Positions 1 through 55,440 of a DNA stretch of 63,571 nt are shown piece by piece. Every line of letters begins with the position of its first letter. Position 1 is the stretch's first letter. The DNA is from Schmidtea nova (Eukaryota). The position numbers were made by a program, and so were the translations under genes. The notes under the pieces are model-generated. The model made no database searches. It was not told the origin of the DNA and saw only the letters and a list, made by a program, of their open reading frames with translations. Location: assembly GCA_044892505.1 (NCBI GenBank), contig CM097882.1, forward strand, positions 13,516,430 through 13,580,000, given 5' to 3'.

Positions 1-92
1 TTTAAAATAATAATACTAATATTTCATCACAGTGTAAATAATACAATAAAGTAGAAAATTAATAAAAACAAAAAGAAATAAAATACAAATAT

Positions 93-3000
93 TTATTGAA
101 ATAAATCATCTTCATCTTCGTCATCTTCTTGAATATCTTCATCTTCGGTAATTGAATCCCCCATAACTGTAAAACTTTCTCTACAATGTCCATAAGCAAT
201 ACTTTTATTTTTCTCAACCCAAAGTCTCTTATCATCGAGGTTAGTAAGTGCAATTTTTGAAAACTTATTAGTAAAAATTTGATGATTTTTACTCACAAAT
301 CGAGACTGCTCTACTGAAACTATAGTATTATTTCTATAACAATCAAGATAAGACCGATGCTTCAGTTTAGTATCTTTCAAACAGACGCCTTTAGCCTTTA
401 AACATTCCTTATCACCTAAAAGACTATAACATTTAGGTCTAAGAAAAACCCATTCCTTATATTTATGACCCTTATTTTCGTCTTTAAACTTTCCTATAAC
501 AGAATCAAGTTTTTTCGAATATAAAGAATGACTAGGGTCGTAATTCGATGTATCCAAAAGACAATCTCTAACCATCGCAGGTAACAGAACATCTAACCTA
601 CAATTCTTAATCTCCAAGAAGAAAGAATCAGTATCGCCTGCAACTATATTAATCTCACAGTTGAATTCATTGCGATATTTTTGCAATTCTTCATACTGGA
701 GTTGATACATTCTAAGTTTAGATAAATCCAGTACACTTTAGCCAATGTAGCTGGGTCTATCTAAACACACAGAGTCCTTATTAAGCAAGACAGAAATTAG
801 GTCATCGTCAATCATATAAGTTTTTCTAAAGGTAGGTTTTGATGTATATGTAATCAATTTTGATGCTGAATTACAAAGTCGTAAATTGAGTCTTTTCTTA
901 AGATTTTCGACAGTTTTTCCATAAAGACTATTATTTAAAAGTTTGTAATATTTTTTATCTAAAACAAACGATGAAGCTGCCCTAAGTTCAGTGTTCGTAT
1001 CAATATATTTTTTAAAGATGGGTTTCTGTTTGTACTGAACAGCCCGATGAACTCGTGTTATTTTAACACCCAAAGAAAGAAATAATTTTAAAAGTCTCCA
1101 ATGAAGAACATAGTTGAACTTTGGATAATGTGTCAACATTAACTTTTCAACTTTAGAATTGGGAGCACACATTCTTTCTGCCGCTACTGGAAAGTCATTT
1201 AATTTATCATGAATTTCAACTGGGATTACCAAGTCAACTTCAAATGTTACACCGATTGTTAAAAGTTCCAAGTCAACATCCATCAAATTAATTAATTTAT
1301 TTAATTTTTTCTCATCATTAATCCATTTAAATTTACCACAAGGTAATTTTTGGCTTAAGGCCCAACCGTACATATTATTAATGTCGATGTAAAGTAGTTC
1401 AGTCGTTTCGGAGGATACTACATGATGCTTGTTGACAAATGTCAAACCACCACGGATCCCCCCTTCGAAAAAATTATACATCTCCATATCCTGGAGCAAC
1501 TCAATAGGTTCTTCCAAGGTAAGAAGTGCAGAAGCCCACGACATACCTGGAATACCCAAGAAATTCAACGGTTCTAACCTATTATGAGAAATTGACTTGG
1601 CTCTAAACTGTTTGAAAAAGTCGGCAAGAAGAAAGACGTCAAGTTTAAGGTAGACCATCATGTAGTCACAAAGAGTTTGACAATTAGTTTCCCTCCAAAT
1701 AACTAATGCCTTGTCGTATTCAGCCTGCTTAACACCCTCCCAGATTGGTGGTAATTCATATGTTTCATTCAAGACTTCTAACGATGTTGCAAAATTATAA
1801 GGAAAAATACCCTTACAATCAACAATAGTACCACTGAATTCAGATCGCGTTAAAGGTAATGAAGTCAATGTTTTAACCGCATCATTTAAACTGGAGTTAA
1901 TAAACTGACAAGAGTCAATGAATTTAATTGTTAAATCACCGACTCTTGCAGATAAAGTAAGGAATTTTTCACTCGTAGTTGGAATACATGATATTTTCCA
2001 AGTTGAAAAGTTTGCTAATCCATATTTAAGAATATGGTGCATGTCATACCCTTTTAAATTATGAAACACAACCGGTAGTTCCTTACGAATCTGTCTAGTA
2101 AGATTACATTTTAAGCAAGCAGCTCCCAAGAATTCACCAGTGTAGTGATCATGGTCTCTGACTGGTTGTACTAAAGTTTTCCTACAGAGATAACAATTTG
2201 TAGATGAGGCAAAAGATATTTTATTTTCAAATGTCATAATAAGTGGTTTTTTGAAATTGTTTTTATAAAAAGGAAAAACAATTTCTTCACCTATATTGTT
2301 AATTTCAGCAAGAAAATTAGTAACGCAATCAAGACCTAAGAAACACTTGTAAATTTTTTCACCAGTGAAATTATTTACAAGTAAAAGACCGGCAGATATT
2401 GGGACATGTCTTTGAAAGTACTTATCATCAGCAGGTAAGATTGCCTCAAAATCGGCGTAAACAACAAAAGGTGGAGTAATTGTTTTGCCCCAATTATTAA
2501 ATGTCAAATAAGGATTTTTAGGCAAAGTATATAGAGTTGTGCCTAATTGATTTTTAGAACACAACTCTTGATGACGAACAAAAGAATCTTGATATCTAAA
2601 TCCATTCAAGCATCGATGGCACCATAAACTTTGAATACGAGTACCAGATATTGATTTATTGTCAAGATTTAAAAGCCTATCAAGATTGGTTACTGCTATA
2701 TAATGAAAAGAGTCACCATTTTGTAAAACAATCAAGTTAATAGGGATTCCGTCTACTACTTTCGACCTATGAATTATGTCAATACACGGATGTTTGAAAA
2801 CTTCAGGCTTAGTGTCTAGAATTCCAGATTCATCATATGAAAGTACGTTAATCGCATATCCCGGGTTTTTAGCTTCAAACTTTGGGATATTGCAAAGACG
2901 CATAGGCAAATCAGAAGGACTAAAGTTAACATCAGAAAGATTGTAATTACTGATCCTATGTTTATTTTTACGGCCAGATATCTCATCATATTTAATAATT

Positions 3001-4178
3001 ACCAAAACAGAATAGATAAAGCACAAGTCATCAGAATTCTGAACATTTACAACACAATGTTTTGATTTTAAAGATTCAGGAGTGTCAATACCACCGTAAC
3101 CTATCAACCTACTAATCTCAGAAAATTTGGTTAATATGAAATGAATTTCATTAATTTTATTAATTATCCAGTTACTGCCTCTATTATTAATTAATGTAAT
3201 TTTTTCATTAAGAATATTAATGCCATCGTCTATAAAGGTATCTGTGACAGGTTTTGCAGAGTTAGAAATAACTATAGTTTGAAAAGCACCATCTTTTTCA
3301 AACTCAACTTCGATGCAAAATTGAATTTTAACCGTTCCCATCGTTTCAATTACATTATTTAATTTATTAATTAAATTATCAGGTACAAACATGCTTTTTA
3401 AATTCAAGTTAGTTACAATCATTTTCACTATAGCATGTGATTTATTTAAATCAAATTTAACAACAGGTAAAATGGAGCCACCAACCTGTACTTCAGGAAC
3501 TAAAGAGTATTTATCGTCAGAAATTTTATCAAAAGAACCACCAATTTGAATATTATCGATAGGAACAAAAGAGTCTACAACCACAAAATCAGAAAGATTA
3601 TTTATATCAAGAATGTTATCATCATCAGGAATGATATCATTATCAAGAATGGTATCATTATCAAGAATGTTATCAACAGGAATGATATCATTACCAAGAA
3701 TGTTATCATCATCAGGAATGGTATCATTACCAAGAATGTTATCATCATCAGGAATGATATCATTATCAAGAATGGTATCATTATCAAGAATGTTATCAAC
3801 AGGAATGATATCATTACCAAGAATGTTATCATCATCAGGAATGGTATCATTACCAAGAATGATATCATCATCATCAGAAATTACAACTATATCTGAAGGA
3901 ACAACCGAATGAACAATTGAAGGATCAACTGAAGGAACAACTGAAGAAATATCATCAGAAAGAACTGACTTGTTAATTTTGATTGGGATTGGATTATTTT
4001 CATTACATTTTCTTTTAATCGGTAATTTAAAAATTGATTTTTTAGATGTTTTAAATTGTTCTAAATGATCGCAATGAGTATTGTAAAAGTCAATATACGA
4101 AGAGGACGATGTAGATTTGCAAAAAGGACAAATGTAGTAGGTTTTACAGTTATGAGGGTATGCATAATATTTTTCCAT
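93..4178 (-). pseudogene. polB: Protein-primed family B DNA polymerase with vOTU-like protease, C2H2 finger and endonuclease VII-like insert; single in-frame TAA at 738-740
   Basis: Motifs VVYADFEA, VFHNLKGYDMH, LYIDINNMYGWA, KLLNNSLYGKT, AGDTDS, FLRPKCY, KAKGV; NSDDLCF...HYIAV (OTU-like Cys/His); CYLC...RDHDH...CLKCN. ORFs 738-4355 and 93-710 are in one frame: DRPSYIG*SVLDLSKLRMY. First ATG at 4178; true start uncertain. Confidence 0.92.
3610..3870 (-). repeat. In-frame acidic tandem repeat in PolB N-terminal region (about 123-bp/41-aa period x2, 12-aa subunits)
   Basis: DDDNILGNDTIP DDDNILGNDIIP VDNILDNDTILDNDIIP occurs twice. Confidence 0.9.
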
Positions 4179-4487
4179 TAATTCATGGCATTTTACATCA
4201 TGAATTGTGGAGTTGCAATATTTTTGATATATATTGCCTATAAATTTTAAAAATAATATAAAAATAATGATAAAAATAATGATAAAAATTATGATAAAAA
4301 TAATGATAAAAATTATGATAAAAATATTATGATAAAAATTATGATAAAATATCAATGATGTATATCAAGTGTGTATACACACATTCAATTCAAAATATCG
4401 TAATATATATTTATTGATTATGATTGGTCAAAATAATTTAAAAATTTCTATATAAACGACTTATAAAATTAAAATAATCATTAAAAA

Positions 4488-5016
4488 ATGTATCAACTGA
4501 AAAGTAAGATTAATTAATTTTAAATGATTATTTTTTAATTTATTTTTTCTAGAATCGAAAAGAATGACAAAACAAGAAATAATGAAGATTATTCTTGAGG
4601 AAAATCCTATTTCTTCATCTAATTTGGCATTGAATTCACCAGTTCAATTCATGCAATACTCGATGGAGTATTTGAAATATCCAATCAAATATTCATTTAA
4701 AGTAATTAATTAAAAATTATTAAAATCTAATTAATATTATTTACAGGAACCTGTTACACTGAAACAATGTCAATACAATATTCAGGTTGGAAAAATCGGG
4801 GAAACTGATAGAAAGAATCTATCAGAAATATTATTGTTAATAAATAAAGATATTCAATTCAACGAGGAATTCACATATATGAACTGTAAAAAAGAAACAG
4901 ATTTAGGCAAATTAGATGATAATTCAATGTATCAAATTCAAATTATCTTACAAGGATTTAAACAAACTGAAAACGTGATAAAACCTATTTGGAAAATTAT
5001 TGATTTTCATGAATAA
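4488..5016 (+). CDS. Three-exon viral ORF (~144 aa), unknown function, possible OB-fold ssDNA-binding protein
   Basis: ATG 4488; GT-AG introns 4504-4552 and 4702-4746 join in frame to ORF 4834-5016 (MYQLKKSKRMTKQEIMKII...YSFK/EPVTLKQCQYNIQVG...IKPIWKIIDFHE). Confidence 0.75.
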
Positions 5017-5122
5017 ACTCTTGTTTAATTTGTTCTTTATTTATTTTTTTTCTTATTTACATTAAATATATTTTAAAAATAATATATAAATATATCATTT
5101 ATAAAATATATTTATTATAAAA

Positions 5123-5305
5123 ATTAATTAAATTCATATAAAAATCTATCGATTATTAATTAAATTCATATAAAAATCTATCAATTATTAATTAAATCTA
5201 TATAAAAAATCTATCAATTATTAATTAAATTCATATAAAAATCTATCAATTAAATTAATTAAATTCATATAAAAATCTATCAATTATTAATTAAATTCAT
5301 ATTAT
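5123..5305. repeat. AT-rich tandem array, ~32-bp unit x5-6
   Basis: attaattaaattcatataaaaatctatcaatt repeated. Confidence 0.85.
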
Positions 5306-5616
5306 ATAAAAAAAAAATAAACATTTAATTGATAATAATATATTTAATCAATATATAAATACTTACATTTAGCATTAAGTATCGATGGTATAATTTTCAT
5401 TGGCATAACATTGTTTGGTATAATTTTCATTGGCATAATATTGCTTGGTTTAATTTTCTTTGACATAATATTGTTTGGTAAAATTTTCTTTGTTGTCATT
5501 ATTTAAAAATTTGTAAAAAATAAATTAAAAAATATTCATAAAAAATTAAACTTACTTACTTAAGTTGGCTTGTTAGTAAAAATGTTGTTTATTTAAACGA
5601 AATTATTTTAAAATTA

Positions 5617-5870
5617 ATGTAATTTAAAATTAATTAAATATTTTACAATATGTAATTTAAAATTAATTAAATATTTTTACAATATGTAATTTAAAATTAA
5701 ATAAATATTTTTACAATATGTAATTTAAAATTAATTAAATATTTTTACAATATGTAATTTAAAATTAAATAAATATTTTTACAATATGTAATTTAAAATT
5801 TATTAAATATTTTTACAATATGTAATTTAAAATTAATTAAATATTTTACAATATGCAATTTTAAATTAAT
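5617..5870. repeat. AT-rich tandem array, 33-34-bp unit x~7
   Basis: tgtaatttaaaattaattaaatatttttacaata repeated. Confidence 0.88.
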
Positions 5871-5962
5871 AAATTCAAACATAAAAATTCACTTTTGTAT
5901 TAGTGAATACCATAAATAGAAAAAGTCGTTTTATAATAAAAGTCGTTTTATAATAAAAAATT

Positions 5963-6341
5963 TTATTTCATATATTTTAGCCAAGCTAAACAATGTTGCC
6001 CACAGGTTTTTGTCATTGGATTTTGATATCGAATTCTGTTATATTCTATTGGTTTTAACATTGACGATAATTTTTTCAATAATATCGGTGGATAATAAAA
6101 TCCCATTGGATCAAACACATATATTTTATCGGGTTTATTATAAATTGCAAGCCAATGTTCACCTTTGAGGTTTGATGATTGAGTATTGACAATCAATGCT
6201 TTATTCACATCTATATACGGTATTTTATCTAGAGGAAAAACTCCTAGAAATTCCGATCCAATCAATTTTCTAGCAATCTGATCTACCTGAATTGAACTAA
6301 AATCAATAAAATTTAATTATTAAAAATAAATCTTACTTCAT
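5963..6341 (-). CDS. Adenain-like (C5 family) maturation protease, two exons (intron 6297-6336)
   Basis: GEHWLAI, VFDPMG, YQNPMTKTCGQHC (His/Asp/Gln/Cys). Spliced start ATGAA/T gives MNSIQVDQIARKLIGSEFLGVF. Confidence 0.9.
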
Positions 6342-6404
6342 TTACTTTTTTAAAAAATAAATCTTACTTCATTTACTTTATTAATTAATTAAAATTAGTT
6401 TATA

Positions 6405-7631
6405 TTAAACGAGTATTGTTCGATTAGCTGTAATTTGTAATTCCTTTTCAAAAACTCCATATACAATTACAGAAACTGATTCAGTCAATGGTGTACCAAA
6501 TTTAATATCAAGTCTTAGATTACCTTGTTGAGGTAATTGACTTTGATTTAGATCAAAATCTGGAGCCAAAACGAAGGTGAAAAAAGGATATTTGCTTTTC
6601 CAATCTGATAAAGAAATACCACAATTCATACTCTTATTCAGGTAACCAAGGTTACGGACAATAGATTGCATATAACTAGTACTACAATTATCATTTTCAA
6701 AATCTTGAGAATATTTTTCACGATAATCACTTCCTTTCGATAAAGTTAATGATTTGACATTAAAATGATCGTAAATAGAATAAGTTTCAGTAAAAGAACC
6801 ACTATGTCTTTTATTTCCTTGAAATGCTACAAGAATAAAGTTTGGTAATCGTCTATCTCCAAAGATTTGTTCCTTATAAAATGAAGAAGAACCCATTGGC
6901 AATGAAAATTCTACAACTTCCTTATTTCTTATTGGGTAAATTGCATTTCTTGTACCAAGTCCAATTTGATGCCCAGCATAAACTGATGATTCTACTCGAA
7001 CTCTTCTAACCATTAATTTTGCCTCTAATAATTCAATTATAGGTTCAATTTTTGTACATGTTAAACTATTGGATGGATTTGATCTCGTCAATTTAATTTG
7101 AACACTAACACCTGGTAATAAATACTTGGGTTGTTCCATGAAATCGAAATGTAATGGAGAACAAATTGAAAATGGTTTTGATTTTGCAATCCATGCTTTT
7201 CTAGTAAGATCATGGTCATTGTATCCCATTGGAGTTAAAGATGTGTGTTTTGTATCACTATTGTAGTTGAGAATAGTTTCAATCATGGCTTTGTGTGTAA
7301 ATGTATCATTTCCTCCTTCAACTTTAGTAGAATTGAAAATTAATTCGGCTTCTTTAAAAAGAGTTTGGAAAAAGAAATTGTTGGGAGTAACATCAGCATC
7401 CAATCCTAAATTTTCACCCGATTTGTTTACAACTTTGACCTGAAGAGATAGTAAAGTATCGTTCAAATCTAAATATTCAGTTTGAGATCCGTTGATGTAA
7501 AATTGAATAGATGATGTCCCAGCATCTGTAATTGAATTTGTTGGGTAAATATCTTCAAATGCACCATGTTCAATTACTGCTTGTGGAGATGGTCTATCAA
7601 AAAGACATAATTCAGATTTTGCACTAATCAT
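6405..7631 (-). CDS. Major capsid protein (double jelly-roll, hexon-like)
   Basis: 408 aa, SELCLFDRP...EYLDLNDTLL...KYLLPGVSVQIKLTRS...GNLRLDIKFGTPL, Polinton MCP style; position in capsid block. Confidence 0.85.
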   Translation of the reverse strand: MISAKSELCLFDRPSPQAVIEHGAFEDIYPTNSITDAGTSSIQFYINGSQTEYLDLNDTLLSLQVKVVNKSGENLGLDADVTPNNFFFQTLFKEAELIFNSTKVEGGNDTFTHKAMIETILNYNSDTKHTSLTPMGYNDHDLTRKAWIAKSKPFSICSPLHFDFMEQPKYLLPGVSVQIKLTRSNPSNSLTCTKIEPIIELLEAKLMVRRVRVESSVYAGHQIGLGTRNAIYPIRNKEVVEFSLPMGSSSFYKEQIFGDRRLPNFILVAFQGNKRHSGSFTETYSIYDHFNVKSLTLSKGSDYREKYSQDFENDNCSTSYMQSIVRNLGYLNKSMNCGISLSDWKSKYPFFTFVLAPDFDLNQSQLPQQGNLRLDIKFGTPLTESVSVIVYGVFEKELQITANRTILV

Positions 7632-8035
7632 TTTTCAAATATTGTTCCATATCCTTTCATTCTTTTGTTTATATGTTTCTTCATATTTCTTTTTCGTTTA
7701 AGAATTCCGCCATTTTGTTTATTTTCAGTTTTATTTTCGTTAAACACATCAGTCACTTTACTAATTACTTGTGGCAAATGATGAATCACATCGGGCAATG
7801 AATCTTTAATTTCAGAAATGGCATTGGATTTTAGTGCAGGTAAAATCTTTGAATTATTATTTAACACATCATTGGCAGTTTTCATACCAAAATTTCCAAT
7901 ACGTCTAAGAATTGGTAATGCAAATCTACCTATCGTTTTCAACCAACCAGTTCCATATTGTTTACCTACAAAATACGGTAATTCTCCACCTGATTGGCTG
8001 TTGCTATAGAAACTGATAATATCTGGATTATTCAT
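7628..8035 (-). CDS. Putative protease-processed virion/membrane-active protein
   Basis: 135 aa; QSGG, QYGTG, QNGG motifs, amphipathic WLKTIGRFALPILRRIG, basic C-terminus; directly upstream of MCP. Confidence 0.6.
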   Translation of the reverse strand: MNNPDIISFYSNSQSGGELPYFVGKQYGTGWLKTIGRFALPILRRIGNFGMKTANDVLNNNSKILPALKSNAISEIKDSLPDVIHHLPQVISKVTDVFNENKTENKQNGGILKRKRNMKKHINKRMKGYGTIFEK

Positions 8036-9050
8036 TTATTTTACGGAAATGTAATGTCAAGTAAGTTTTGTCTTCTTTTGCAAATTTAACTATTTTTCCA
8101 CTGTCATCACGAATATTGATTTCAATATTGTTTATATATGTGGAACTGACCGGTAAATACATTGGATTTTTCTCAACAATTTGAACCAAATCACCCTTTT
8201 CATGTTTTTCAACCCAAACACATTTCAATAGGGGAACTGACATGTCACCAACAAGAATTGGTTGAATAATATTCGTATAGATGAACATTTGTTGATGAAG
8301 TTTTAAAACTTGTGGATAATATACGCCATCAATAATTTTGTCAAAGAATTCTTGTTCAACTAATCCTAACGAATTTGCTAAATTCCTACTAAATTTTACA
8401 CTAGTTATATCATCTTCAAGAATTAATTTAATTAATTTTCCTTCTTTAATATCAATCACTTTAAATGGATGTGGATAAAAAGTTTCAATTTGATCAGATA
8501 ATTCAGCAAGATTATTTATTATTAAATCGTCTTTGAAATTATCTGTGTATTCAACAGGAAAAGTATAAGTTATAGTAAACCGTATAGTATCATCAAGTTT
8601 TTTATTTTTATTTGCTGGAATTTTAATTTTGTTTAATTCATCATTAAATGTCACAGCTTTTTCTTGAAACCCTAATTTTTTAGCTTCATCAACACTATCA
8701 AATATTATTTGAAATGGAAAATATTTACAATTTACATTTAAAATATTGCCATCAATATACATTAAATAATAATTAGAATCGTGACTTATATCATATTCTT
8801 TCTTTTGTTGGTTAAAATTGAAATATTCATAACTAGAATGTAATTCATTTCTAGTAAATTTTATACTTGAACTATTATAAAATGGAAATTCATTGTACAC
8901 AAAAGTAAAATCCATAAGAGCAACTTCCCAACTACCATCCAAATAAATTGGGTTCTGATATTCAACATTGAATTTTCCAGCTTTATTATTGGGATGTGTC
9001 AATGGGCAAGAATTGCTTGGTAAATTAACATAAAAATCTTTTTTAATCAT
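8028..9050 (-). CDS. Minor capsid (penton-like) protein, paralogue 1
   Basis: FYVNLPSNSCP...PIYLDGSWEVAL N-terminus; MFIYTNII...VPLLK...MYLPV...IEINIRDDSG...LTLHFRK C-terminus. Confidence 0.85.
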   Translation of the reverse strand: MIKKDFYVNLPSNSCPLTHPNNKAGKFNVEYQNPIYLDGSWEVALMDFTFVYNEFPFYNSSSIKFTRNELHSSYEYFNFNQQKKEYDISHDSNYYLMYIDGNILNVNCKYFPFQIIFDSVDEAKKLGFQEKAVTFNDELNKIKIPANKNKKLDDTIRFTITYTFPVEYTDNFKDDLIINNLAELSDQIETFYPHPFKVIDIKEGKLIKLILEDDITSVKFSRNLANSLGLVEQEFFDKIIDGVYYPQVLKLHQQMFIYTNIIQPILVGDMSVPLLKCVWVEKHEKGDLVQIVEKNPMYLPVSSTYINNIEINIRDDSGKIVKFAKEDKTYLTLHFRKINE

Positions 9051-10080
9051 TTATTTTACGAAAATGTAGAGTCAAATGAGTCTTTGTATCTTTTGAAAAT
9101 TTAATTAATTTTCCACTGTCATCACGAATATTGATTTCAATGTTGTTTATAGTTGATGTTGAAATCGGCAAATACATTGGATTCTTTATTTCAATTTGTA
9201 CAACTTCGCCTTGGTCATATTTCTTGATCCAAATTGATTTTAGGAGGGGAACTTGTACATCTCCAACAGTCACTGGTTCAATAATGTTGCTGTAAATGAA
9301 CATTTGCTGATGAAGTTGTAAAATTTTGGGGATTTTTACACCAATTATTTCGGTATCAGTATATGTTTGTTTCTGTAGACCCAGAGATTTGGTTAAATTT
9401 GAATCAAAAGTAATTTTTGAAATATTATCCTGAAGAATAATTTTAACCAATTCATTATTGACAAGTTTCAATTTTTTAAATGGAGATGGATTAATTTTCA
9501 TTAAATATCCTTGTAATTCCGGTAATGACGTTATGAATAATTCATCTTGAAAATAATAATCATTAACAGTTTTAATGTCATAATTTATAAAAATTCCAAA
9601 TTGTTCAAGACTATTATCATTCGTGAATTTTGGTAATTTTAAACGACAATGATCATTTTCACTTGTAATTGATATATTTTCCAATCCAAAACTTTTTGCA
9701 TGTTCAAGATCTGGAAATGTAATTTTAAATGGAACATGTGGGCAAACAATCACTAAATAATTATATTTTTCAATAAATACATCAGTGTCTGAACTAGGTT
9801 GAGAAACTATAACTTGAATTGTTTTATTTTGATTATTAATTCTCAAATAACTAATTTCTTGAATTTCTCTTTTAGTTTCAATTTGAATAAAAGAATTACT
9901 ATAATACGGAAACAAATTATACACAAAAGTAAAATCAATCAAAGCAACTTCCCAATCGTCATTACTATTTAAATAAATCGGATTTTGAAATTCTACAATA
10001 AAATTACTAGCTTCATTATTAGGATAAATAAGAGGACATGCATTGCTAGGCAAAATCATATAAAACTGGTTTTCTTTCAT
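9043..10080 (-). CDS. Minor capsid (penton-like) protein, paralogue 2
   Basis: Same N- and C-terminal motifs as 8028-9050, divergent middle. Confidence 0.85.
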   Translation of the reverse strand: MKENQFYMILPSNACPLIYPNNEASNFIVEFQNPIYLNSNDDWEVALIDFTFVYNLFPYYSNSFIQIETKREIQEISYLRINNQNKTIQVIVSQPSSDTDVFIEKYNYLVIVCPHVPFKITFPDLEHAKSFGLENISITSENDHCRLKLPKFTNDNSLEQFGIFINYDIKTVNDYYFQDELFITSLPELQGYLMKINPSPFKKLKLVNNELVKIILQDNISKITFDSNLTKSLGLQKQTYTDTEIIGVKIPKILQLHQQMFIYSNIIEPVTVGDVQVPLLKSIWIKKYDQGEVVQIEIKNPMYLPISTSTINNIEINIRDDSGKLIKFSKDTKTHLTLHFRKIND

Positions 10081-10085
10081 AATAT

Positions 10086-11171
10086 TTATTTAATCAATTG
10101 TTTTTCAGATATCCAACTTGGAGTTTCATAGCCATGCCATTTAACGTAATATTGTTTATATTTCCCATCAGTTTTGGTTTTTAAAATCTTTTGAATTCTA
10201 AAAACTGTGGGAGCTGGAATAACTTGAAGTTCTTGTTCGTAGAATTTACCCTCGATTACATTGTTTTCATGATCGGAAATAGTATACATGACAGGATTTT
10301 GATTAGTATCAACATTTGAGATTTGATATACTTCATCACTCCAATTACTATCAAAATTTTTGATGAAGGGAGAAGCACTGATTTTACTCATTCTCACATA
10401 ATCGCCTACTTTATATTTCGGTTTTTTATTAATTGATTTTAATCTATCTTTTATCCATCCATCAAAATTATTATTTGAATATACATCGATAGGTTTCATT
10501 TTATTTAATCCCGAATGCGGTGAACGATTGTAACTGGAAATAATTTTCGGTAAAACATTTATCCATGTTTTGTTACCTTGATACACAAAAAACTTTTTCA
10601 AACGATCTCTTAAAGTTCGATTAAATCTTTCAACATGAGCAGCTTTGAATTGAGAAAATACAGAATAATGATTGATTTCTTTGATCACTTCTTTTACTTT
10701 GCTGTTATAAAACTCTTTTCCTAAATTAAAATTAATTAATTTTTAAAAATTTAATTTCTTACCCAAATCAGTTTGTAAATTTCGTGGCTTCCCATCTTTA
10801 AATAAAGATTCAATAGCCTCAGCCATTTCATTAGCAGATTTAGTTTTTGTTGGAATAGCTCGTGCATAACGGCTAAAAACATCAATACAAGTCAAAATAT
10901 ATTTGTAACCCTTGTTAATTTTAGAATAAGGAATCATTTCCATTAAATCCATTTGCCATAAATCGTTACCCCCAAAAGTTTTATATTTCCGTGTAGGAAA
11001 TCTTTTCAACATTGGTTTATTTAAACTATATGCCAATTGATCAGATAGCCATTTCTGAGTTTCATTCTTTGAACTTTTTATTCTTTTTGCCAATTTTTTG
11101 ACTGAACCAAAACCATCGGGATCTTTTGGGTTTGTCCATATCGTTTTTATATTCTTCATGATTTTCTTCAT
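10086..11171 (-). CDS. Retroviral-type DDE integrase with C-terminal chromodomain, two exons (intron 10721-10762)
   Basis: WQMDLMEM (D1), QTDLG/KEFYNS after splicing (D2), HVERFNRTL (E), YYVKWHGY chromodomain. The 42-bp GTAAG...TTTAG intron contains a stop. Confidence 0.92.
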
Positions 11172-11233
11172 TAATACAACAATTTGTTAAAATATTTAAA
11201 TCTATATTATGTTTATTCGGTTCAGAAATTTTA

Positions 11234-11563
11234 TTACCCATTTCTTAAAGATGAGATTGCGCTTATTGCTGATAATACTATTGGAATTAATGTACCGAGA
11301 AACCCACCCTTTTGTTTATATATTATTTTTCGCATAAGATTTCTATTTTTGGTATTCACTAATGACAAAAGTGAATTTTTATGTTTTTGTAGTTCAATTT
11401 TCTTTGATCTACTAATATTTACATTACCATGAACAATAAATAAAACGACTTCAAGTAAATCATCAATAACAAAGGGTGGGAAAGCTTGTAAAATTATCAT
11501 TCGCTTATTTGTTGGAGCTTTAACCAAAGCATTAAAATACGGTAAACTACGTTCAAATTTCAT
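11234..11563 (-). CDS. pX (mu precursor)-like core protein
   Basis: C-terminal KQKGGFLGTLIPIVLSAI resembles the adenovirus pX xGGFLPALIPIIAAAI motif. Confidence 0.65.
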   Translation of the reverse strand: MKFERSLPYFNALVKAPTNKRMIILQAFPPFVIDDLLEVVLFIVHGNVNISRSKKIELQKHKNSLLSLVNTKNRNLMRKIIYKQKGGFLGTLIPIVLSAISAISSLRNG

Positions 11564-11593
11564 GATTAAGATTTTTGTGTATATTTATTTCGT

Positions 11594-11755
11594 TTATAAT
11601 TTTATCCACTTCTTTACTTGTTTCTTTCTTTTACCAATCTTTTTGACAACTTTTTTAACTAATTTAGATTTTTGATCAACTTTTTTAAGAAGTTTTTGAT
11701 CAGCTTTTTGAACAGCTTCTTTATTTAACTTGACAATTACTTTTTTAAATGACAT
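11594..11755 (-). CDS. Small Lys-rich basic protein (53 aa), putative DNA-condensing core protein
   Basis: Hand-translated: MSFKKVIVKLNKEAVQKADQKLLKKVDQKSKLVKKVVKKIGKRKKQVKKWIKL; fills the gap between ATPase and pX-like gene. Confidence 0.6.
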   Translation of the reverse strand: MSFKKVIVKLNKEAVQKADQKLLKKVDQKSKLVKKVVKKIGKRKKQVKKWIKL

Positions 11756-11776
11756 TATTATTTCATTTATTTGTTT

Positions 11777-12400
11777 TCAATTTTGTTTATAAACCGTGAC
11801 TCCTTTTTCGTTAAATATATCCGTTCGGATACGTAAATCATCAGGACATTGTTGAGTAAAATCAAAGAATAAATATCCATGAGGAACTTTAGTAGCATCT
11901 TGAAATGAATTAATTAAGAATTTCCTATCATTAAGGTAAGCTTGTCTTGCTAAAAAATCAATAATTGTAGCATCTCTTGGGTTTTTGAATATAACCAAGT
12001 ATTGAACATTTAAATTACGAGTTCTGTGACTACCACCTTGATGAAATAAATTTTGAGTAATGAAAATTACAGTAACTCCTAAATGTCTACTAATTTTTGT
12101 GAATAAATTATTAAAATCTTTTTCTTTATTTGCTTCTTGGTACAAATCATCGATAATTATAACATCGCCCTGACGTAATCTAGATGACCAGTTTTTATCA
12201 AACCCTTTTATAATTGTCATTTTTAATTTACAGAATTGATCTTGAGTCAGTCCATGTTCTTCATCAGCTCCTCTATGCCAGTAAATTTTATTGAATTTTG
12301 ATTTAAACATTTTTGATTGCAACAATTTACATACAAATAATGTTTTTCCACTACCACTTGGGCCCACTATTTGATAAACTGCATCATTTCTTAATTCCAT
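11777..12400 (-). CDS. A32/FtsK-like DNA packaging ATPase
   Basis: Walker A GPSGSGKT, Walker B IIIDD, RH...FITQNLF, YLVIFKNPRD. Confidence 0.92.
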   Translation of the reverse strand: MELRNDAVYQIVGPSGSGKTLFVCKLLQSKMFKSKFNKIYWHRGADEEHGLTQDQFCKLKMTIIKGFDKNWSSRLRQGDVIIIDDLYQEANKEKDFNNLFTKISRHLGVTVIFITQNLFHQGGSHRTRNLNVQYLVIFKNPRDATIIDFLARQAYLNDRKFLINSFQDATKVPHGYLFFDFTQQCPDDLRIRTDIFNEKGVTVYKQN

Positions 12401-12456
12401 TTTTATTTAATTAATTAATTAATTTAATATTGTTTATATTTATTCAATTTATAAAA

Positions 12457-12939
12457 ATGATAAGTAATATTAATTATAAGGGCAAGTGTTTAGTTCCAAA
12501 CATGATATTTCCTGTTGGAAAACCCCAGCAAGTTATAGATAGGAGCGGGAAGTACCCTATTTTATTTTTCAGATCGGGAAAATGCCGTGTAATGGGTTGT
12601 AAGCAACCGTTAAAACCAGATGATTTGAAATATAAAATTTCCGATTTAAAAATTCAATCGATCACTATAACATTGGATATGGGTAAATCCATAAATTTAT
12701 ACGAATTGCAAAATAAAACAGAGTGCTGGTACGAACCCGAAATATTTCCAGCTTTAAGATTAATAAATTATAACCCTATTTGTATTAATATTTTTTCAAG
12801 TGGAAAAGTTGTAATATTAGGAATTAAAACATTGGATTATTTTAATCAAGTAAATGAAATTAAAAATTATATTAATTCATTAATTAATAATGAATTAATT
12901 GATGAAAAATATCTCGATTTATTATTTAATTTTGTTTAA
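12457..12939 (+). CDS. TATA-binding protein (TBP)-like protein encoded by the element
   Basis: Two TBP half-repeats: LFFRSGKCRVMG and KIQSITITLD...YEPEIFPAL...IFSSGKVVILG. First ATG at 12457. Confidence 0.85.
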   Translation: MISNINYKGKCLVPNMIFPVGKPQQVIDRSGKYPILFFRSGKCRVMGCKQPLKPDDLKYKISDLKIQSITITLDMGKSINLYELQNKTECWYEPEIFPALRLINYNPICINIFSSGKVVILGIKTLDYFNQVNEIKNYINSLINNELIDEKYLDLLFNFV

Positions 12940-12974
12940 ATACATTGTTATTTTACAAATCCATATTTTTGAAA

Positions 12975-13360
12975 ATGTCTAAAAGTAAGTATTATTTTTA
13001 ATTAACTATATTATTAATATTTTTTATTTAGCTTATTTATTTGAAGTGGTCCTGAAGAAAATTCAAGAATTATATCCAAAAATAAAAGATTCTTTGGATT
13101 ATTGTGCGCCAGAGTTATTGGTTCATAAGATATACAAGCTTACTGGGATCAATATCGAACAATTGCTCGAGATTCACTACGATATGGTGCTAGGAGCTGG
13201 TGTCAAGTGCGTTGAAAATTGCATAGTTTGCAATGATTCACTAAGAGTATCCTGTGTAAACGGATGTGCATGCTGCCATGATTTTAAAAGAGATCATTCG
13301 GTGCATATCTTAATGTCAGAAATGCGTAAAGCATATTATAACGACATTTATAATTTATAA
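12975..13360 (+). CDS. Cys/His-rich viral ORF, two exons (intron 12985-13031)
   Basis: ATG TCT AAA A/gtaagt...tttag/CT TAT TTA TTT GAA GTG joins in frame to ORF 13046; CxxxCxxC...CxxxCxCCH. Confidence 0.7.
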
Positions 13361-14179
13361 TAAAGTTTTGTGATTTAGTTGTTCTTTATTTCATAATTTT
13401 TCAAAGTTTTGTGATTTAGTTGCTCTTTATTATTTTCAAAGTTTTTTCAAAGTTATTATTATTTTTCTAAGTTTTTTCAAAGTTTATTATAATTATNNNN
13501 NNNNNNNNNNNNNNNNNNNNNNNNNNNNNNNNNNNNNNNNNNNNNNNNNNNNNNNNNNNNNNNNNNNNNNNNNNNNNNNNNNNNNNNNNNNNNNNNNNNN
13601 NNNNNNNNNNNNNNNNNNNNNNNNNNNNNNNNNNNNNNNNNNNNNNNNNNNNNNNNNNNNNNNNNNNNNNNNNNNNNTATTATTATTCAAACTGACCAAA
13701 AAATATAAAAATAAATTTAAATTTAAATAAATTATTAAAAATAAATTAAAAATAAATATTAATTTAAATAAATTAANNNNNNNNNNNNNNNNNNNNNNNN
13801 NNNNNNNNNNNNNNNNNNNNNNNNNNNNNNNNNNNNNNNNNNNNNNNNNNNNNNNNNNNNNNNNNNNNNNNNNNNNNNNNNNNNNNNNNNNNNNNNNNNN
13901 NNNNNNNNNNNNNNNNNNNNNNNNNNNNNNNNNNNNNNNNNNNNNNNNNNNNNNNNNNNNNNNNNNNNNNNNNNNNNNNNNNNNNNNNNNNNNNNAAAAT
14001 AATAAATTAAATTGACTTCATTTAAACAAAAAATTAAAATTAAAAAATTCACTTCATTTAAACAAAATTAAAAACTAAAAATTCACTTAATTTAAACAAA
14101 ATAAAAAATTTTAAAAATTCACTTCATTTAAACAAAAAAAAATTTTTTTTTGGTTGGGGGGGGTAAAAATTTTTTTTAG

Positions 14180-14222
14180 GGGGGGGTCTGTTCCTGTTCT
14201 TGGGCGCTCCCCCTACTCTACT
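14180..14222 (-). repeat. Candidate right terminus of the Polinton
   Basis: Minus strand reads AGTAGAGTAGGGGGAGCGCCC, like the 5'-AG/AGT Polinton termini; partner TIR is outside the window. Confidence 0.35.
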
Positions 14223-20243: not shown

Positions 20244-21134
20244 TTACAAGTGAAATCGTAAAACATACAATCTGAAAGTTTTTATCAAAACAATATAGAC
20301 AAGTGGATTTATGGCTGTCAAATATACGCTCAAAATTGATAAAACGTCGCCCAGATCTCTAGTGAAGGAGATTCTAGGATTATAAAGTGAAACTGTAACT
20401 AATGAAAACGAAATAAAAGAGACGAGCCCATAGAAAAAACTTGAGATACAGTTCGCTAGTGAAAACCTAACGTAGAGACGTTTTCTAGATGATATTTCCA
20501 GCTGCATATCTTTAATGATTTTCTTTCGGATGTTTCGGAACAAAATCACACTCGAAATGGCGTTTAGAATGAAAAGCAAAATGAAAGGAATCAAGTAAAC
20601 GAAGACGATATTAAACATAGTATACCGCAAATCATTCCAACATCGCCACTTAGTTTCATTATTTGAGGAGGTTTTGGCCTCAATTCGTACCCCAAAGAAG
20701 TTCACAGCATTTATCAATGCAACTATCCCCACTGAAATAAGAAATATTCCCCTAAGCTTCGACTTTTCAATCATTTGATAATGAAACGGAAAGACGATAA
20801 AGGTAAATCTGTCAACAGAAAGAAAGACCATTGAGATGATATTGAACAATGAAGGATACCAAAATAGAATCATGGTCTGCCAGATGTAGCAGTAAAACAT
20901 CACGTAGTCCTTCGGTAACGATTCATTCAAGTTCTTTTCTTTGAAGTTCATCAAAAGTAACACGACTATTGATATGATGGAGGAAACAGTCTGGAATTTG
21001 ATTATGAAATTCGTGCATAACGACGCAAAACAATGACACCTGATGAAGGTTAACAATCTCAAATTAAGGATTAGTATCATCCCCATACAGATGCAATGAA
21101 ATATAAAAAAATGTAATATTAATGAAAAAGTCAA
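20244..21134 (-). CDS. Class A (rhodopsin-like) GPCR, 5' end probably on an upstream exon
   Basis: Multiple hydrophobic helices, SVDRF (DRY-like), AINPLVY (NPxxY); AG just upstream of the frame. Confidence 0.85.
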   Translation of the reverse strand: MTFSLILHFFIFHCICMGMILILNLRLLTFIRCHCFASLCTNFIIKFQTVSSIISIVVLLLMNFKEKNLNESLPKDYVMFYCYIWQTMILFWYPSLFNIISMVFLSVDRFTFIVFPFHYQMIEKSKLRGIFLISVGIVALINAVNFFGVRIEAKTSSNNETKWRCWNDLRYTMFNIVFVYLIPFILLFILNAISSVILFRNIRKKIIKDMQLEISSRKRLYVRFSLANCISSFFYGLVSFISFSLVTVSLYNPRISFTRDLGDVLSILSVYLTAINPLVYIVLIKTFRLYVLRFHL

Positions 21135-48427: not shown

Positions 48428-49333
48428 TGTTCGTCTGTGTGTGCTTTTTGATTTTCTATTCGCATCTGTATGCGCTTAATTTCGAAATCTTATTTTGCTC
48501 GCGTCTGTGTGCGCGATTTTGTCTGGGTAATTTTTTAGATTGTTGTTGATTGAGTTATTTATTGATTTTTTGCTTTAGAGGAATTTATTGTTAGATTGGT
48601 TGTTTTATTATTGCAGTTTTTTGAGGGAATTTAGATTTTTTGATTCAAGAATTGAAATTAATTTAAATACAACTATGAATGAAAGCGAAAACGAAGTAGA
48701 AAACGATGAAGTTAATAATACTGATTTATCTGACGACGATTTAACAGAAAATGATGAAAAAGAAGATGATGATATGAATACAGATGATAATGAAAATAAT
48801 CCAGCAAAAGAAGACACAATGCTTTCTGAAAACAAAGATAACAATTCTATAGAAGCTGATGTGGAAATCTCAGAAATTAACTCCCATATCAGATGTCGCT
48901 TTCGCAATGATTCAAATGAACTCTTCAGATGTCGCTTTCGCAATGATTCAAATGAACTCTTCAGATGTCGCTTTCGCAATGATTCAAATGAACTCTTCAG
49001 ATGTCGCTTTCGCAATGATTCAAATGAACTCTTCAGATGTCGCTTTCGCAATGATTCAAATGAACTCTTCAGATGTCGCTTTCGCAATGATTCAAATGAA
49101 CTCTTCAGATGTCGCTTTCGCAATGATTCAAATGAACTCTTCAGACTGAACCTTCTTACACTGATTAATAATAAAATCCTTGGAATCGTGTTACTTTTTA
49201 TCAAAAACATTAATTTGATTATAGCTCGAACATTTGGGCCTTTTGGTCAAATTGTCTGTGATTTTGGATCAAATCATGTAGTTATGAAAACAAATAAAGA
49301 TTCTCACTCGGACGTTCAATCAATGATTTTTCA
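48428..49333 (+). repeat. 5' LTR (906 bp; seven 36-bp repeats at 48890-49141)
   Basis: Matches 53699-54568 except for one extra repeat unit. Confidence 0.95.
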
Positions 49334-52300
49334 TGGTAGCAGAGCGTGGTTCCCACCGGGGGGCCACGCACACTCTGGAAAGCCGTTAGTCGACCTTTTT
49401 ATTAAACATTCTTTTATGCCTTTTGTAAAAATATTAAAATGGGTTAAATTTGTAATTGGAGTATGGACCAACATTCCCTCCCAGGCGCGTTTTGAATGGA
49501 AAGTGAAAGTTGGAATGGCTTGGCCACCGGATATTGTGAAAGACGGCTGCTATGGGCCCCAGCATTCTTTTAAATTCCGGGAAATGTTGCAACAAGATAA
49601 AATTTTGAAAGGCTTAGAACCTTTTGTAGGAATAAGGGGAGATAAAAGTAATCATAAAAAGTTCTATAATCAAATTGTTAAAAATATTAAATTGGGTAAT
49701 CATGAAGACCGGGTAAATATGAATAGAATAGGGAAATTATTGAGTTTTTATTCAATAGCAAGTGGTGATGAAAGGACAAGTCTAAAGGATAATAGTTCGC
49801 GAGTGAAAGAAAAGGAAACGGAGTCCACTTTACATTTTGTTTTGCGATTGAGACGTAGAATACAGATTTTTGTTAAGACTCTAGCAGGTAAAACCATAAC
49901 ATTGGAAGTTGAACCGAGGGACTCTATTGAGAAAATAAAAGCCAGGATCCAAGAGAAAGAGGGAATCCCGCCTGATCAACAGAGATTGATATTTGCAGGT
50001 AAACAATTAGGAGGCGAAAGAATCCTGTCAGATTACCACATTCAAAAGGGGTCTACTATTCATCTGGCACTGAGATTGTGTGGAGGGAATGATGAAGAGG
50101 AGGAATTAGAGGAAGGATTGAGAAAGAAGAGGAGTGTCAAATATAGATTGACGAAATTAAGAAACAGGTGGATGAATGATATGTTGGCAGAAGATGCAAC
50201 ACATGTCCTTGATGAATATCAGGAAGCTATGGAAAGTGCCATAGAGAGTTTTGAAAGATTGGTGGATATTAGTAAAAGATTAGGAAGGTCAGATACAACA
50301 ACGGGGCTAGAATCGGACTTACAAGAGATAGAAAATAAGAACGAGAAGGTGGAAGAGTTAATTTCGTCAAAGGCCAATCAGTCAGTTAGGTCGGATGACA
50401 GCAATACAATTAAAGAGATCAATGGAAATGAAACGAAGAAAAGACTAGAAAAGATGCAGAAGATACGGATCCAGATATTTGATGGACACCAAAAAGAATA
50501 TGAAAGTTGGAAAGCCGCTTTCCATACGTGTGTTGATAGTGCCCATGGAGATGATGATGAAAAGATGTTACACCTTCGATCCTATCTGAAAGGTGAACCG
50601 CTAAGGCTGATCGAAAATTTAGGATTTTCTGCAACGGGTTATAAAATGGCAAAAGAAAAGCTTGATAAAAGATATGGCGGGGAAGAACGAAATTACTTAG
50701 CTGCTCTGGAAGATATCGACAGGTTCCGACCCGTGCGTGAAAATGAAATGCTGGAAATCGAGGCGTTTGTTGGGCTATTGGAAACGCTAGAAGTTAGAAT
50801 TATTAATAATAGACGAGAGGGCGAAATGAACAATAGTTACTTATTGAAGAGATGCCTGCAAAAGCTACCCTGCTCGCTGCTATACAAGTGGAAGAAAGAC
50901 TTTAAGGAGAGAAAGGTAACCGAATGTATCCAAGATTTGAGAAATTGGTTACAAGATGAAGTCGAGCTGTTAAGATCAACAAGAGAAACCCTTTATGGAG
51001 TCGGGGATGGCAATAGAAGAAACGATTGGAAGAGACAGGATGGACCGTCAAGAGAACTTGGGAATCCAAGGCAAGGGAACCGGACACTTGTTGGGCAAGT
51101 AGCAGATTGGAAGGAAGACAAGACAAACATACCAAGAGACGGATTGTTGAGTACAAAGTTGAAGTGTTGGAAATGCAAGGAAAATCATTACTTGGATCAA
51201 TGCAGAGAATTCAAAGAAATGAACCCCGCAATGCGACGTAAAGCAGTAGGAGACTGGAAGTTATGCTTTAATTGTTTAAAGTCTAATCATGTAGCGTCGG
51301 AATGTCGAAAGGCTTCATTCTGTACTAGAGAAGGGTGTAAGCTGAAACACAGTAACCTACTGCATGTGGATCAGTCAGAGTCCAAAAGGAAGGAAAACAC
51401 ATTGATGTCGGCTACTAAAGATGAATTATTAAAAAGGGAGCGAAAATACCTAAGCTTGAGGACGATACCGATCTACCTTGAGCATGGAGCGAAGAAAATT
51501 AAAGTAAATGCGCTGTTAGACGATGCAAGCTCCATTAGCTACATAAGTCAGAGCATTGCAGACGAGTTGGGTCTGAAGGGGAAAGAGGAAATAGTTCCTG
51601 TGAGCGTCATCGGAGGTCATATTCAAAATATGACAACAAGAATAGTCACGATGACGTTGATAAGTTATGATCAGAAGATGAGGAAAAAGTTTACAGCTGC
51701 AGCGGTGAAGAGTGTAACCGGGGAAATGCGAGTGATAAATTGGGCAAAGGAAAAATGGAAATGGGAACATCTAAAGGATATACGGTTTCCAATGCTTGAT
51801 GAACGGCAAGTGGTGCAAGTTCTTATCGGAGCCGATTATTTAGGGTTGCAAAGAGCGTTGAAGGAAGTGGATGGGAAGATGAATGAACCGATTGCGAGAT
51901 TAACGCCGTTAGGCTGGACCTGTGTTGGTAATACGTCGATAAGAAAGCTGGGGAGTCACCAGAGTAATTTTACGCGAACGTTTTTTGGCCAGAGAGACGG
52001 ATTGGAAGACCAAATGCAAAGGTTTTGGAAAATTGATGAAATCGGGCTAAAGGAATATATCGAGAGTTTTGCACTTAAAGCTCAGGAAGAAGTTTTTAGT
52101 GAAAATCAAACTGGTGATAGCGATTTTAATTCAAATCAAAATGAAGATAACACGAAAAAGTATAATATGGCTGGTGAAATGATTGACAACTCTGAGTCGG
52201 TTGATATTGCAAGCGAGGAAGGAATAAATACTTCGTCAAACGAATTAGTGCGAAATGTAATGACGGAAATTGAATCGACAATGGTAGTAAAAGATGAGCG

Positions 52301-53573
52301 GGCAGTAAATGAATATAATTTTGAAGAAAACTGCATTGTCGATGAGAAAATTGTGGAAAATATAAATGATATCGAAGAAACTTGTAAAATTGAGGAAATT
52401 ATTGGAGATAACTCTTTTAATGGGGAAAATATTGAGCATGGAACAGTTGAAAATTCCAAAGTTGATAAAAGTGACGATGAAAAGGTTAATGATATTGAAA
52501 CAAATCTAGAAGATGATGGCAAAATTACCAAATATGTCAGTAATAAAGGTGAAAAAGTAGAAACGATTGAACGAATAAATTGTCCGGTTATAATTGCAGA
52601 GAGAACAGGTAGTGAACAGTCAGCATTTCTTCTAATGAAAAGTAAAGATGCAATTAGTGGCAATAAAATGGGATCATTTGACATGGTTGTGAAAGGTTCA
52701 ACTGGTGATGATGAAGTTCTGGCTGATAAGTCGGATTTAGTAATACAACTTCATTCAAAGATAGAAGATCTTGAAAATAAAATAAAAACGGGCGAATTGG
52801 AATATAAAAGGGAAATTAATGAATCAAAAGTAAAATTTGCGAATTTAGCTAAAACTGTAGAAACGTTATCAGCTAAGATAGAAAAGGTAAATGATATTAA
52901 TGGAAAATTGGCAACTGTAAATCGGGAACTAAAAATAAAGATTAAACGAAATGAAATCGATTTAAATGAGCTATCTGCGAAAGGAAGGCATTTAAATGTG
53001 GAGATGAAAGAAAAGGAAAATGATTACCTAGAAAAACTTCGAGAGGCTAATGACGAAATCGCTTCTCAGCAAACCTTGGTGAAGGATTTGACGGAAGTAA
53101 ATGGTAATTTAATAATTAAACTAAATGGCAATCTGGGAATGATGGAAGATAATAAATTAAACTCGAAGTCTTTAAAGATAGAAGAAGATTTCTTGAAAAT
53201 GGGACTTAGTACTAAAAAGGAGTTGGTTAAAGAAGTCTCAAGGAAATTGGGAAAGAATTTTGAAGAAGAAATTTATATTTCGAACAATATAATGAATATT
53301 GATGAAAAATTAGTCGAACCCAAAAGAGATGGCGAATTAATTGAGAGTCAGTTGATTAAATTAGAAGTTAATGGAAAGGAAAATAGAACGAAATGGTGTC
53401 TGCTGCATGGTCCGGTTGTGGGGCGTGATGGGGAAATTACAAAGGTTCGGATATTGTGCTATACAGCTGCAAAATTCATAAATAAATGCATCATGCAAGA
53501 GGCATGGATGCAAAGAATTGATTGGAAGGAAATACTTCCTCAGGAGGTGATGAAAAAGGAAAACCAATGTTGA
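48675..53573 (+). CDS. 1632-aa fusion: acidic region, 12-aa repeats, UBA1-like fragment, linker, ubiquitin, Gag (DUF1759-like, CCHC), aspartic protease, acidic/coiled-coil, pol scraps
   Basis: First ATG at 48675 in ORF 48588-53573; [35 protein letters not shown]...[34 protein letters not shown]. Confidence 0.9.
49203..49329 (+). other. Ubiquitin-activating enzyme E1 (UBA1)-like fragment inside the LTR (second copy 54438-54564)
   Basis: [31 protein letters not shown] resembles UBA1 [20 protein letters not shown]. Confidence 0.7.
49334..49351 (+). promoter_or_regulatory. Primer binding site, tRNA-iMet type
   Basis: TGGTAGCAGAGCGTGGTT directly after the LTR-terminal CA. Confidence 0.9.
49860..50087 (+). 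other. Ubiquitin domain (76 aa, ends LRLCGG), preceded by a partial ubiquitin tail ending LRLRRR
   Basis: [19 protein letters not shown]...LALRLCGG; 59/76 identical to canonical ubiquitin by hand count. Confidence 0.97.
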
Positions 53574-54568: not shown

Positions 54569-55308
54569 ACATGAATTAAATTCGATCATAGTGTTTTGAC
54601 GCGGTCTTGTCAGCTCATTCACGACGCATGAAAAACAACGCTGTGAGTGACGTATTGATGTCCAGATCCTGTTGAGCCAAATATTAGGGGTGGCAGAAAC
54701 AACTCTTGTGGATGCGATTACTTACCCATCTGGCTTTTAAGGAACAGGCAATACCGCTTTTTACGACTGGCAATATTAAAACATATTGTCTTCATCTTGT
54801 CTTCTCTTATATTTATACAAATTAATAATAAGTTATCATAATTAAAAAAAATTATATTAAAAATAACAATACTTAGAAAAATAGTAATTAACAAAAATAA
54901 TTATGATAAAAATAATTAATAAAAATAAGAAACGTGTGAAAATAAAATAATAATAAATAATAAAAATAAAAATTAGAAACGCTGTAACTTTTATTTAACC
55001 GAAGTTAAAATAAAATAATTTTTATTCACAATTGTTTTTATAAGTTGGCTTAATTTTCAGTCACTGTTTTCTATTTTCTTTTGTTTTGCCAATATTATCC
55101 GCGATATCTTTAGTTATTATTGTAGTGCCTCCGTCATATTCATAATATAAATATTTATATATAAATTAAATAAAATAAAATATTATAAGATTATATATAT
55201 ATATATATATTATCATAATTATCTTTTTTCACCTTTGATCTTTTTTTATTATTATTATCAATAATTCTCATAATGACTATAGATCAAAATTTTTTTTTAT
55301 AAACAATA

Positions 55309-55341
55309 ACACAATATTTCGGCACAGCCTTTATCAAGTGT
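55309..55341 (-). ncRNA. Variant minimal hammerhead motif in pLTR
   Basis: Reverse complement of 61231-61263. Confidence 0.65.
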
Positions 55342-55440
55342 GTATTTCTATCGTTATATTTACTTAATCCTAAATAGTAGCCTTAATTATTTTTTTAATA
55401 TTTTATAATGATTTTATTGGATGAAAAAATTTATTTTATT

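Follow-up and report, generated by a model that had tools for sequence, protein, structure and literature searches.

The window analysed here, a 63,571-nucleotide stretch of the Schmidtea nova genome (contig CM097882.1, positions 13,516,430 to 13,580,000), holds at 1..14222 the larger part of a Polinton/Maverick element of 15,395 bp in total, whose left end lies 1,173 bp ahead of the window (G000:C1:13515257). Its integrase, protease and pPolB polymerase genes, together with two accessory genes (A and Z), very probably carry functional spliceosomal introns that are spliced by the host. The element ends in terminal inverted repeats opening with AGTAGAGTAG and is flanked on both sides by TTTAAA, the 6-bp target duplication. 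A Pfam scan matched pPolB, an adenain-like protease, an rve integrase with a chromodomain, an A32-like ATPase and a TBP domain, with the protease (PF00770) and the ATPase (PF04665) scoring above the Pfam cut-off. The repeats and target duplication, taken with the pPolB, integrase, ATPase, protease and double jelly-roll (DJR) capsid genes, identify the element as a Polinton/Maverick (eupolintovirus, adintovirus). It departs from the described, though not defining, Polinton trait of uninterrupted core open reading frames (ORFs). The interrupted genes are arranged as follows.

93..4237, minus strand: pPolB main exon, opening at a conserved YAG/G acceptor (DNA_pol_B_2, PF03175, E 1.8e-30), with an in-frame stop at 738-740
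4238..5366, minus strand: predicted pPolB intron, 1,129 nt, phase 1, with gene A inside it on the opposite strand
5367..5499, minus strand: predicted pPolB first coding exon, 133 nt (44 codons plus 1 nt), repeat-rich
5511..5559, minus strand: predicted pPolB 5'-leader intron, donor at 5559 or 5555
4488..5016, plus strand: gene A, function unassigned, in pieces 4488-4503, 4553-4701 and 4747-5016; an in-frame ATG also at 4565
4504..4552, plus strand: gene A intron 1, 49 nt, phase 1, family-specific, an arm of a 79-nt inverted repeat
4702..4746, plus strand: gene A intron 2, 45 nt, phase 0
5963..6341, minus strand: adenain-like C5 protease (Pfam), ATG at 6341-6339, exon 2 at 6296-5963
6297..6336, minus strand: protease intron, 40 nt, phase 2, after the ATG and two further nucleotides
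10086..11171, minus strand: rve integrase with chromodomain (Pfam and homologue alignment), exons 11171-10763 and 10720-10086
10721..10762, minus strand: integrase intron, 42 nt, phase 1, within a Gly codon
12975..13360, plus strand: gene Z, Cys-rich, function unassigned, in pieces 12975-12984 and 13032-13360
12985..13031, plus strand: gene Z intron, 47 nt, phase 1

Five tiny GT-AG introns had been proposed in the initial annotation, and all five segments (49, 45, 40, 42 and 47 nt along the window) are present in their proposed places and on the proposed strands. That list was incomplete, however, as the 1,129-nt intron and the leader intron of pPolB were missing from it. The five segments have a GC content of 7-10%. 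Reading through any of them leads to a stop or a frame shift, and removing each restores the frame with fitting phases; as had been pointed out, three are no further than six codons from an ATG. Donors read GTAAG in four of the five and GTAAT in the other, and the acceptors are T-rich YAG, in agreement with the major U2 consensus. A blind scan of both strands of 1-14222 for AT-rich GTRA(G/A/T)..YAG stretches of 35-55 nt returned seven matches, namely the five segments, each on the sense strand of its gene, one match in a terminal repeat and a further, longer stretch that overlaps the protease segment. The introns of the host MFS gene, read by eye from the DNA, measure 48, 48, 53 and 76 nt with 23-27% GC. 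Those of the element are of equal length or a little shorter, with a higher AT content; the earlier remark had put them close in size to the smallest host MFS introns.

In other copies, as the initial annotation had suggested checking, position and phase are kept while the inner sequence turns over for the introns of the integrase, the protease and gene Z and for gene A intron 2, but not for 4504-4552; conservation across families holds for two of the three introns in accessory genes. Given GT-AG ends, positions and phases that persist across families, cores that have turned over and exons that remain constrained, the segments are likely to be ordinary spliceosomal introns, and their splice sites are, judging from this conservation, under selection.

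The integrase intron splits a Gly codon two residues past the second catalytic Asp, so that both Asp residues are encoded in exon 1 and the catalytic Glu in exon 2. Among outside integrase homologues, 118 of 120 align to both exons; 115 of the 118 have exactly one residue across the junction (Gly in 114), and the remaining three carry the same unbroken D-x-G-x-E-F motif. The DNA is also uninterrupted in six metagenome loci that were found via exon 2 alone and span the site. Across the genome, GT-N28-58-AG was found at 10,316 (4,222 + 6,094) of the 10,618 integrase sites with any insert of 32-62 nt (97%), reversed-pattern controls gave none, and 166 sites, mostly of one family, had no insert. 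The 42-nt segment is kept in 50 of 50 close loci (48 places, window included). At sites sampled from other subfamilies the segment is 40-44 nt long and read-through is blocked in 30 of 30. Faster divergence of intron than of exon, put forward earlier as a check, was observed between the window and 11 intron-bearing loci, where intron core identity is at chance level (0.59-0.70, against 0.62-0.69 after shuffling) and the ratio of nonsynonymous to synonymous substitution (dN/dS) of the exons is 0.00-0.18. A saturated core beside such low exon ratios indicates that both halves of the integrase stayed functional after the segment arrived.

These data bear directly on the idea that the segments, as AT-rich insertions, have inactivated non-autonomous copies, which intron-less helpers mobilise in trans. 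The 166 intron-less integrase motifs would suit such an arrangement, as would the in-frame stop in pPolB, owing to which the window copy of the element is likely defective. The strong purifying selection on both integrase exons between families is nevertheless unlike that of dead genes, and GT..AG ends persist in 97% of inserts despite the saturated cores. Moreover, the intron-less-integrase family itself has the protease intron, and a whole-genome motif search for an intron-less protease start of the two main types found 0 sites. A helper system of this kind is consequently very improbable. Recent-insertion polymorphism was not seen among the DNA copies either, as the intron-less integrases form a separate sister family. 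Many copies of that family (L052-L081, L145) occur as inverted pairs about 7.2 kb apart.

In a tree of integrase exon 2 comprising 57 rows (20 intron-bearing, five intron-less from this genome and 32 from outside), the intron-bearing rows form one clade (99/98) that lies inside the outside rows and next to the five intron-less rows. A single gain is the simplest account of one intron-bearing clade among intron-less integrases, and the integrase intron was thus probably gained once. The intron-less relatives read G-GTAA(A/G) at the intron site, and several intron-bearing subfamilies have GGTAA(G/A) at both junctions. This pattern is compatible with an intron inserted at a cryptic donor and accompanied by a short duplication; the scenario is put forward here as speculation. 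The repeated junctions are also what a target duplication would leave if the introns, though real, came from an introner-type mobile family inserted into the element. Introners are known from eupolintoviral elements of dinoflagellates (PMC12166617), and two of 15 intron pairs in this study were more alike than all 300 shuffles. The other 13 pairs did not exceed all shuffles, however, a local inverted duplication extending into exon sequence accounts for the best pair, and the window copy has no junction repeat longer than 2 nt. An introner source is accordingly unlikely; any older signal, such as an ancient introner origin would have left, has been erased by sequence turnover.

For the protease, an ATG with two further bases followed by GT(A/G)AG..AG occurs at 8,872 genome sites, and an intron of 37-42 nt was found in 26 of 40 own 10-kb loci, the others being degenerate or without the region. 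Protease dN/dS is 0.13-0.36 where computable. Splicing had been predicted to give a protease starting with MNSIQ, and a natural homologue (P0123) opens with MNSVQ, in agreement with that start. The intron occurs also in the family without the integrase intron and in outside metagenome loci L213 and L217 (54% protein identity), and it is therefore not specific to this genome; judging from this distribution, it predates the integrase intron. The initial annotation had seen long adaptation to the host spliceosome in the element. The segments do behave as spliceosomal introns under long selection; adaptation to this particular host's spliceosome is less well supported, given that L213 and L217 share the protease intron. 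The protease ATG and donor are tandemly duplicated (window 6337-6390, minus strand) in 18 of 28 copies scored, and locus L153, which retains the upstream ATG only, has a 78-nt intron.

For pPolB, the conserved coding sequence starts abruptly at AG/G with no upstream Met in every family aligned from the start. The predicted first exon of the window ends in a phase-1 GTAAGT donor. It is 1 mod 3 in length and stop-free in 27 of 27 copies scored (of 30, three of which lacked the anchor), in spite of 12 different lengths (115-307 nt), and the length of the intron varies freely. In a second family the first exon has this phase too, although it is unrelated. The leader intron measures 45-49 nt and lies 11 nt ahead of the ATG; its acceptor is canonical in the 26 other copies scored and degraded in the window copy. 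Trans-splicing of a spliced leader to the pPolB acceptor was weighed as an alternative and dropped, since two families have a cis first exon whose phase fits.

With regard to the accessory genes, 26 of 29 other loci have a gene Z (26-92% amino acid identity) with an ATG..phase-1 GTA..AG arrangement and the same acceptor. An Atlas search gave no function for gene Z. Gene A had no Pfam match, and its Atlas matches were hypothetical proteins only. A family at about 50% amino acid identity has gene A intron 2 in the same position but with another sequence; the distant homologue in L138 lacks this intron. A mosaic element, L128, has capsid and ATPase genes 96-98% identical to those of the window, an integrase at 78-86%, a gene A at about 50%, and a gene Z at 49% that is intron-less.

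Several observations weigh against host-spliced introns as described above. Branch-point-like TTAAT/CTAAT motifs are weak; they lie 18-20 nt before the end in four of the five segments, and the motif is common in AT-rich DNA. The pPolB first exon is built of 3n repeats, which could keep the frame without selection. A phase-1 GT(A/G)AG first exon was found in just six of 21 pPolB loci of the large divergent family and the distant L139, so that a donor can be proposed for a minority of these loci only. The outside integrase protein homologues were restricted to those of at least 369 aa, which favours uninterrupted genes, and the exon 2 tree, from which 19 broken or motif-changed loci were dropped, has no true root. 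Gene A intron 1 is missing from a sister family, whose gene begins at the corresponding ATG further downstream, immediately behind a TATA box. Finally, the stop in the integrase segment is absent in three of the 50 close loci, and 10 of 150 integrase matches have open frames of 366-385 aa.

The last two counts, and the divisibility of 42 by 3, would be expected if the integrase segment were translated as a 14-residue insertion, or its stop read through, with no need of splicing. Against this stand the segments of 40, 41, 43 and 44 nt in other subfamilies, where 26 of the 30 sampled are not 3n and all 30 are blocked. The added residues would furthermore sit two residues past the catalytic Asp, in a motif that is free of insertions in 118 homologues. 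Translation of the segment is thus extremely unlikely, and its removal by the spliceosome is preferred.

A narrower doubt concerns 4504-4552, which may be a 5'-leader intron (with the start at 4565) or remain unspliced, ATG 4488 then not being the main start and the other four introns being right. The in-frame ATG lies 12 nt past the acceptor of this segment, and the sister family just mentioned uses the matching ATG with no intron. In addition, the segment and the bases downstream mirror the pPolB leader intron and start, forming with them a 79-nt inverted repeat (75%; window 4502-4580 and 5483-5561), and the likeness of the two introns exceeds all 300 shuffles. The repeat suggests that one of these introns was copied from the other; gene A intron 1 may be a recent copy of the pPolB leader intron, possibly non-coding. 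On the other side, ATG 4488 lies 26-39 nt past TATA-like boxes, splicing puts it in frame (as chance alone would in one case out of three), and the GT..AG ends of the segment are kept in 30 of 30 near-identical loci. A leader role or retention of the segment is a serious possibility, if not the favoured one. Because of the ATG at 4565 and the sister family that lacks the segment, ATG 4488 is uncertain as a coding start. The matter concerns one intron and is compatible with host splicing of the element's genes in general.

Four read sets of unrecorded kind covered 5925-13370, a stretch that leaves out gene A and pPolB. Coverage was even over genes and spacers and DNA-like, and carries no information on expression; none of the 15 joints examined (of 89) matched an intron.

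Host splicing would imply that the integrated element is transcribed in the nucleus by the host RNA polymerase II (Pol II), that its short introns are recognised across the intron, and that the major spliceosome removes them. The spliced mRNAs would then yield the integrase, protease and polymerase that spread the family. The introns themselves would have been gained stepwise, those of the protease and polymerase early, that of the integrase once and later, and gene A intron 1 most recently, the last perhaps by inverted duplication with the polymerase leader.

Polinton core genes are usually described as uninterrupted, as the initial annotation had noted, and the accessible portions of the papers cited here agree. 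Intact vertebrate Mavericks are described as having 'eight conserved and intronless ORFs'; 'No introns were observed', a finding that matches Kapitonov and Jurka 2006 (Barreat & Katzourakis, 2021, PMC8097293). They share with the present element the terminal inverted repeats, the 6-bp target site duplication and the pPolB, integrase, ATPase, protease and capsid genes, whereas here the core genes are split and there are about 10,600 integrase sites, compared with a highest quoted Maverick copy number of 287 (PMC8097293). Nematode Mavericks, with the same core genes, do contain introns, but only in host-derived cargo genes (Widen et al., 10.1101/2022.07.12.499685), and not, as here, in the integrase, protease and polymerase. 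Core genes of protist elements are likewise described as intronless (Bellas et al., PMC10120064; Hackl et al., PMC8547959), and PLVs are described with group I introns only (PMC12220804). The dinoflagellate eupolintoviral elements also have spliceosomal-type introns; these are young mobile introners, about 25% of them in coding regions, with selection against them suggested (PMC12166617), in contrast to the old, fixed and position-conserved introns of the present animal element. Adintoviruses are animal-associated polintoviruses with integrase, pPolB and adenain, and on a word search neither spliceosomal introns nor splicing came up in the main text of the paper describing them (Starrett et al., 2021, PMC8502044). 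The available text of five further reports contains nothing on such introns (PMC5718144; PMC6431247; 10.1101/2023.08.22.554363; 10.64898/2026.10.13.758929; 10.1101/2024.03.25.586562). The literature searched, as far as its text was accessible, thus contained no account of spliceosomal introns conserved in the core genes of animal Polintons, although Repbase and supplementary files, which lay outside the search, could annotate them.

The gene set also invites comparison with adenoviruses, whose pPolB, protease and capsid are related and which depend on the host spliceosome. Adenoviruses are not known to integrate. The mRNAs for their polymerase and pTP draw on a short exon located far upstream, and their splicing is of a long, leader-type alternative kind that includes the capsid mRNAs, unlike the tiny introns inside catalytic domains of this element.

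ORF callers would score such genes as broken, as had been anticipated, and large surveys, taking the core genes to be intron-free, apply intron-blind prokaryotic gene callers (PMC10120064; 10.1101/2025.04.19.649669, in the parts consulted). Active families of this kind would be scored as degraded, and proteases and polymerases would be given wrong N-termini. Because sister families that have or lack a given intron comprise thousands of copies, intron gain, rarely caught in animals, can be studied here by phylogeny. Dependence on splicing would also imply nuclear Pol II expression and offer a testable control point for the element.

No introns were found in the capsid, putative penton, ATPase and TBP-like genes. 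A wider proposal, rather doubtful at present, is that the element belongs to a lineage of intron-gaining, spliceosome-dependent animal polintoviruses in which splicing gates exactly the integrase, polymerase and protease and spares capsid and packaging. The polymerase intron would then act as a cassette for an exchangeable gene on the antisense strand, and individual intron gains could be mapped onto the tree of the element itself. The germline intron of the P element is a known splicing switch on transposition. If enzyme gating were true here, splicing would provide host or element with a switch, specific to tissue or stage, over transposition and the maturation of virions, and the 10,000-copy expansion may have become possible through it.

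The family is young and large. The 150 integrase exon 2 matches scored (150 of 150) are 99-100% identical, and motif counts gave about 10,600 integrase and about 8,900 protease sites in the genome; were most copies full length, Polintons would make up about one-tenth of the 1.25-Gb assembly. Just upstream of the element lies a fragment of another Polinton family, consisting of a pPolB end and a terminal repeat (L021:4567-6497). The remaining genes of the element, on which the scan and structure predictions gave the following results, are:

6405..7631, minus strand: DJR major capsid protein, 408 aa, uninterrupted (structure model and fold searches)
7628..8035, minus strand: conserved 135-aa ORF, uninterrupted, no assigned role
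8028..10080, minus strand: two paralogous ORFs of about 340 aa (8028-9050 and 9043-10080), uninterrupted; other families here have one
11234..11563, minus strand: small basic ORF with a marginal Adeno_PX match (25.5 bits, cut-off 25)
11777..12400, minus strand: A32-like packaging ATPase (Pfam), uninterrupted
12457..12939, plus strand: TBP-like gene (Pfam TBP, E 5.5e-17), uninterrupted, kept in most families of this genome

The capsid ORF gave a structure model of moderate confidence (pLDDT 62.7). The top Foldseek matches were all DJR capsids (E about 2e-9), but with TM scores of just 0.25-0.30, and in VIA-align ranks 1-13 were DJR-type proteins (best Z 11.0, rmsd 22.2 over 295). Searching PDB sequences with a profile built from the capsid alignment gave no match, and scans of viral contigs with integrase exon 2 and with the capsid turned up no relative. 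The two paralogous ORFs stand at the expected place of the penton and had no match in the Pfam scan; we take them to be penton-like by position only. The TBP-like protein could act on the element's own TATA promoters. Its gene shows 50-65% conservation in most families here and in the outside locus L215. A TBP-like gene is also named in a figure legend on non-animal relatives of adintoviruses (PMC8502044).

Elsewhere in the window, an intron-free ORF of 400 aa (24803-26005, minus strand) joins a prenyltransferase beta subunit to a ribonucleotide reductase fragment and is possibly a chimeric retrocopy. A rhodopsin-family GPCR ORF was matched by Pfam at 20244-21137 (minus strand) and marks the host as an animal. 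Two further features were named by eye: a 1,664-aa ORF at 48579-53573 (plus strand), whose retrotransposon-like frame includes a ubiquitin-like stretch, and a reverse transcriptase-bearing element present in inverted copies at 55246-61326.

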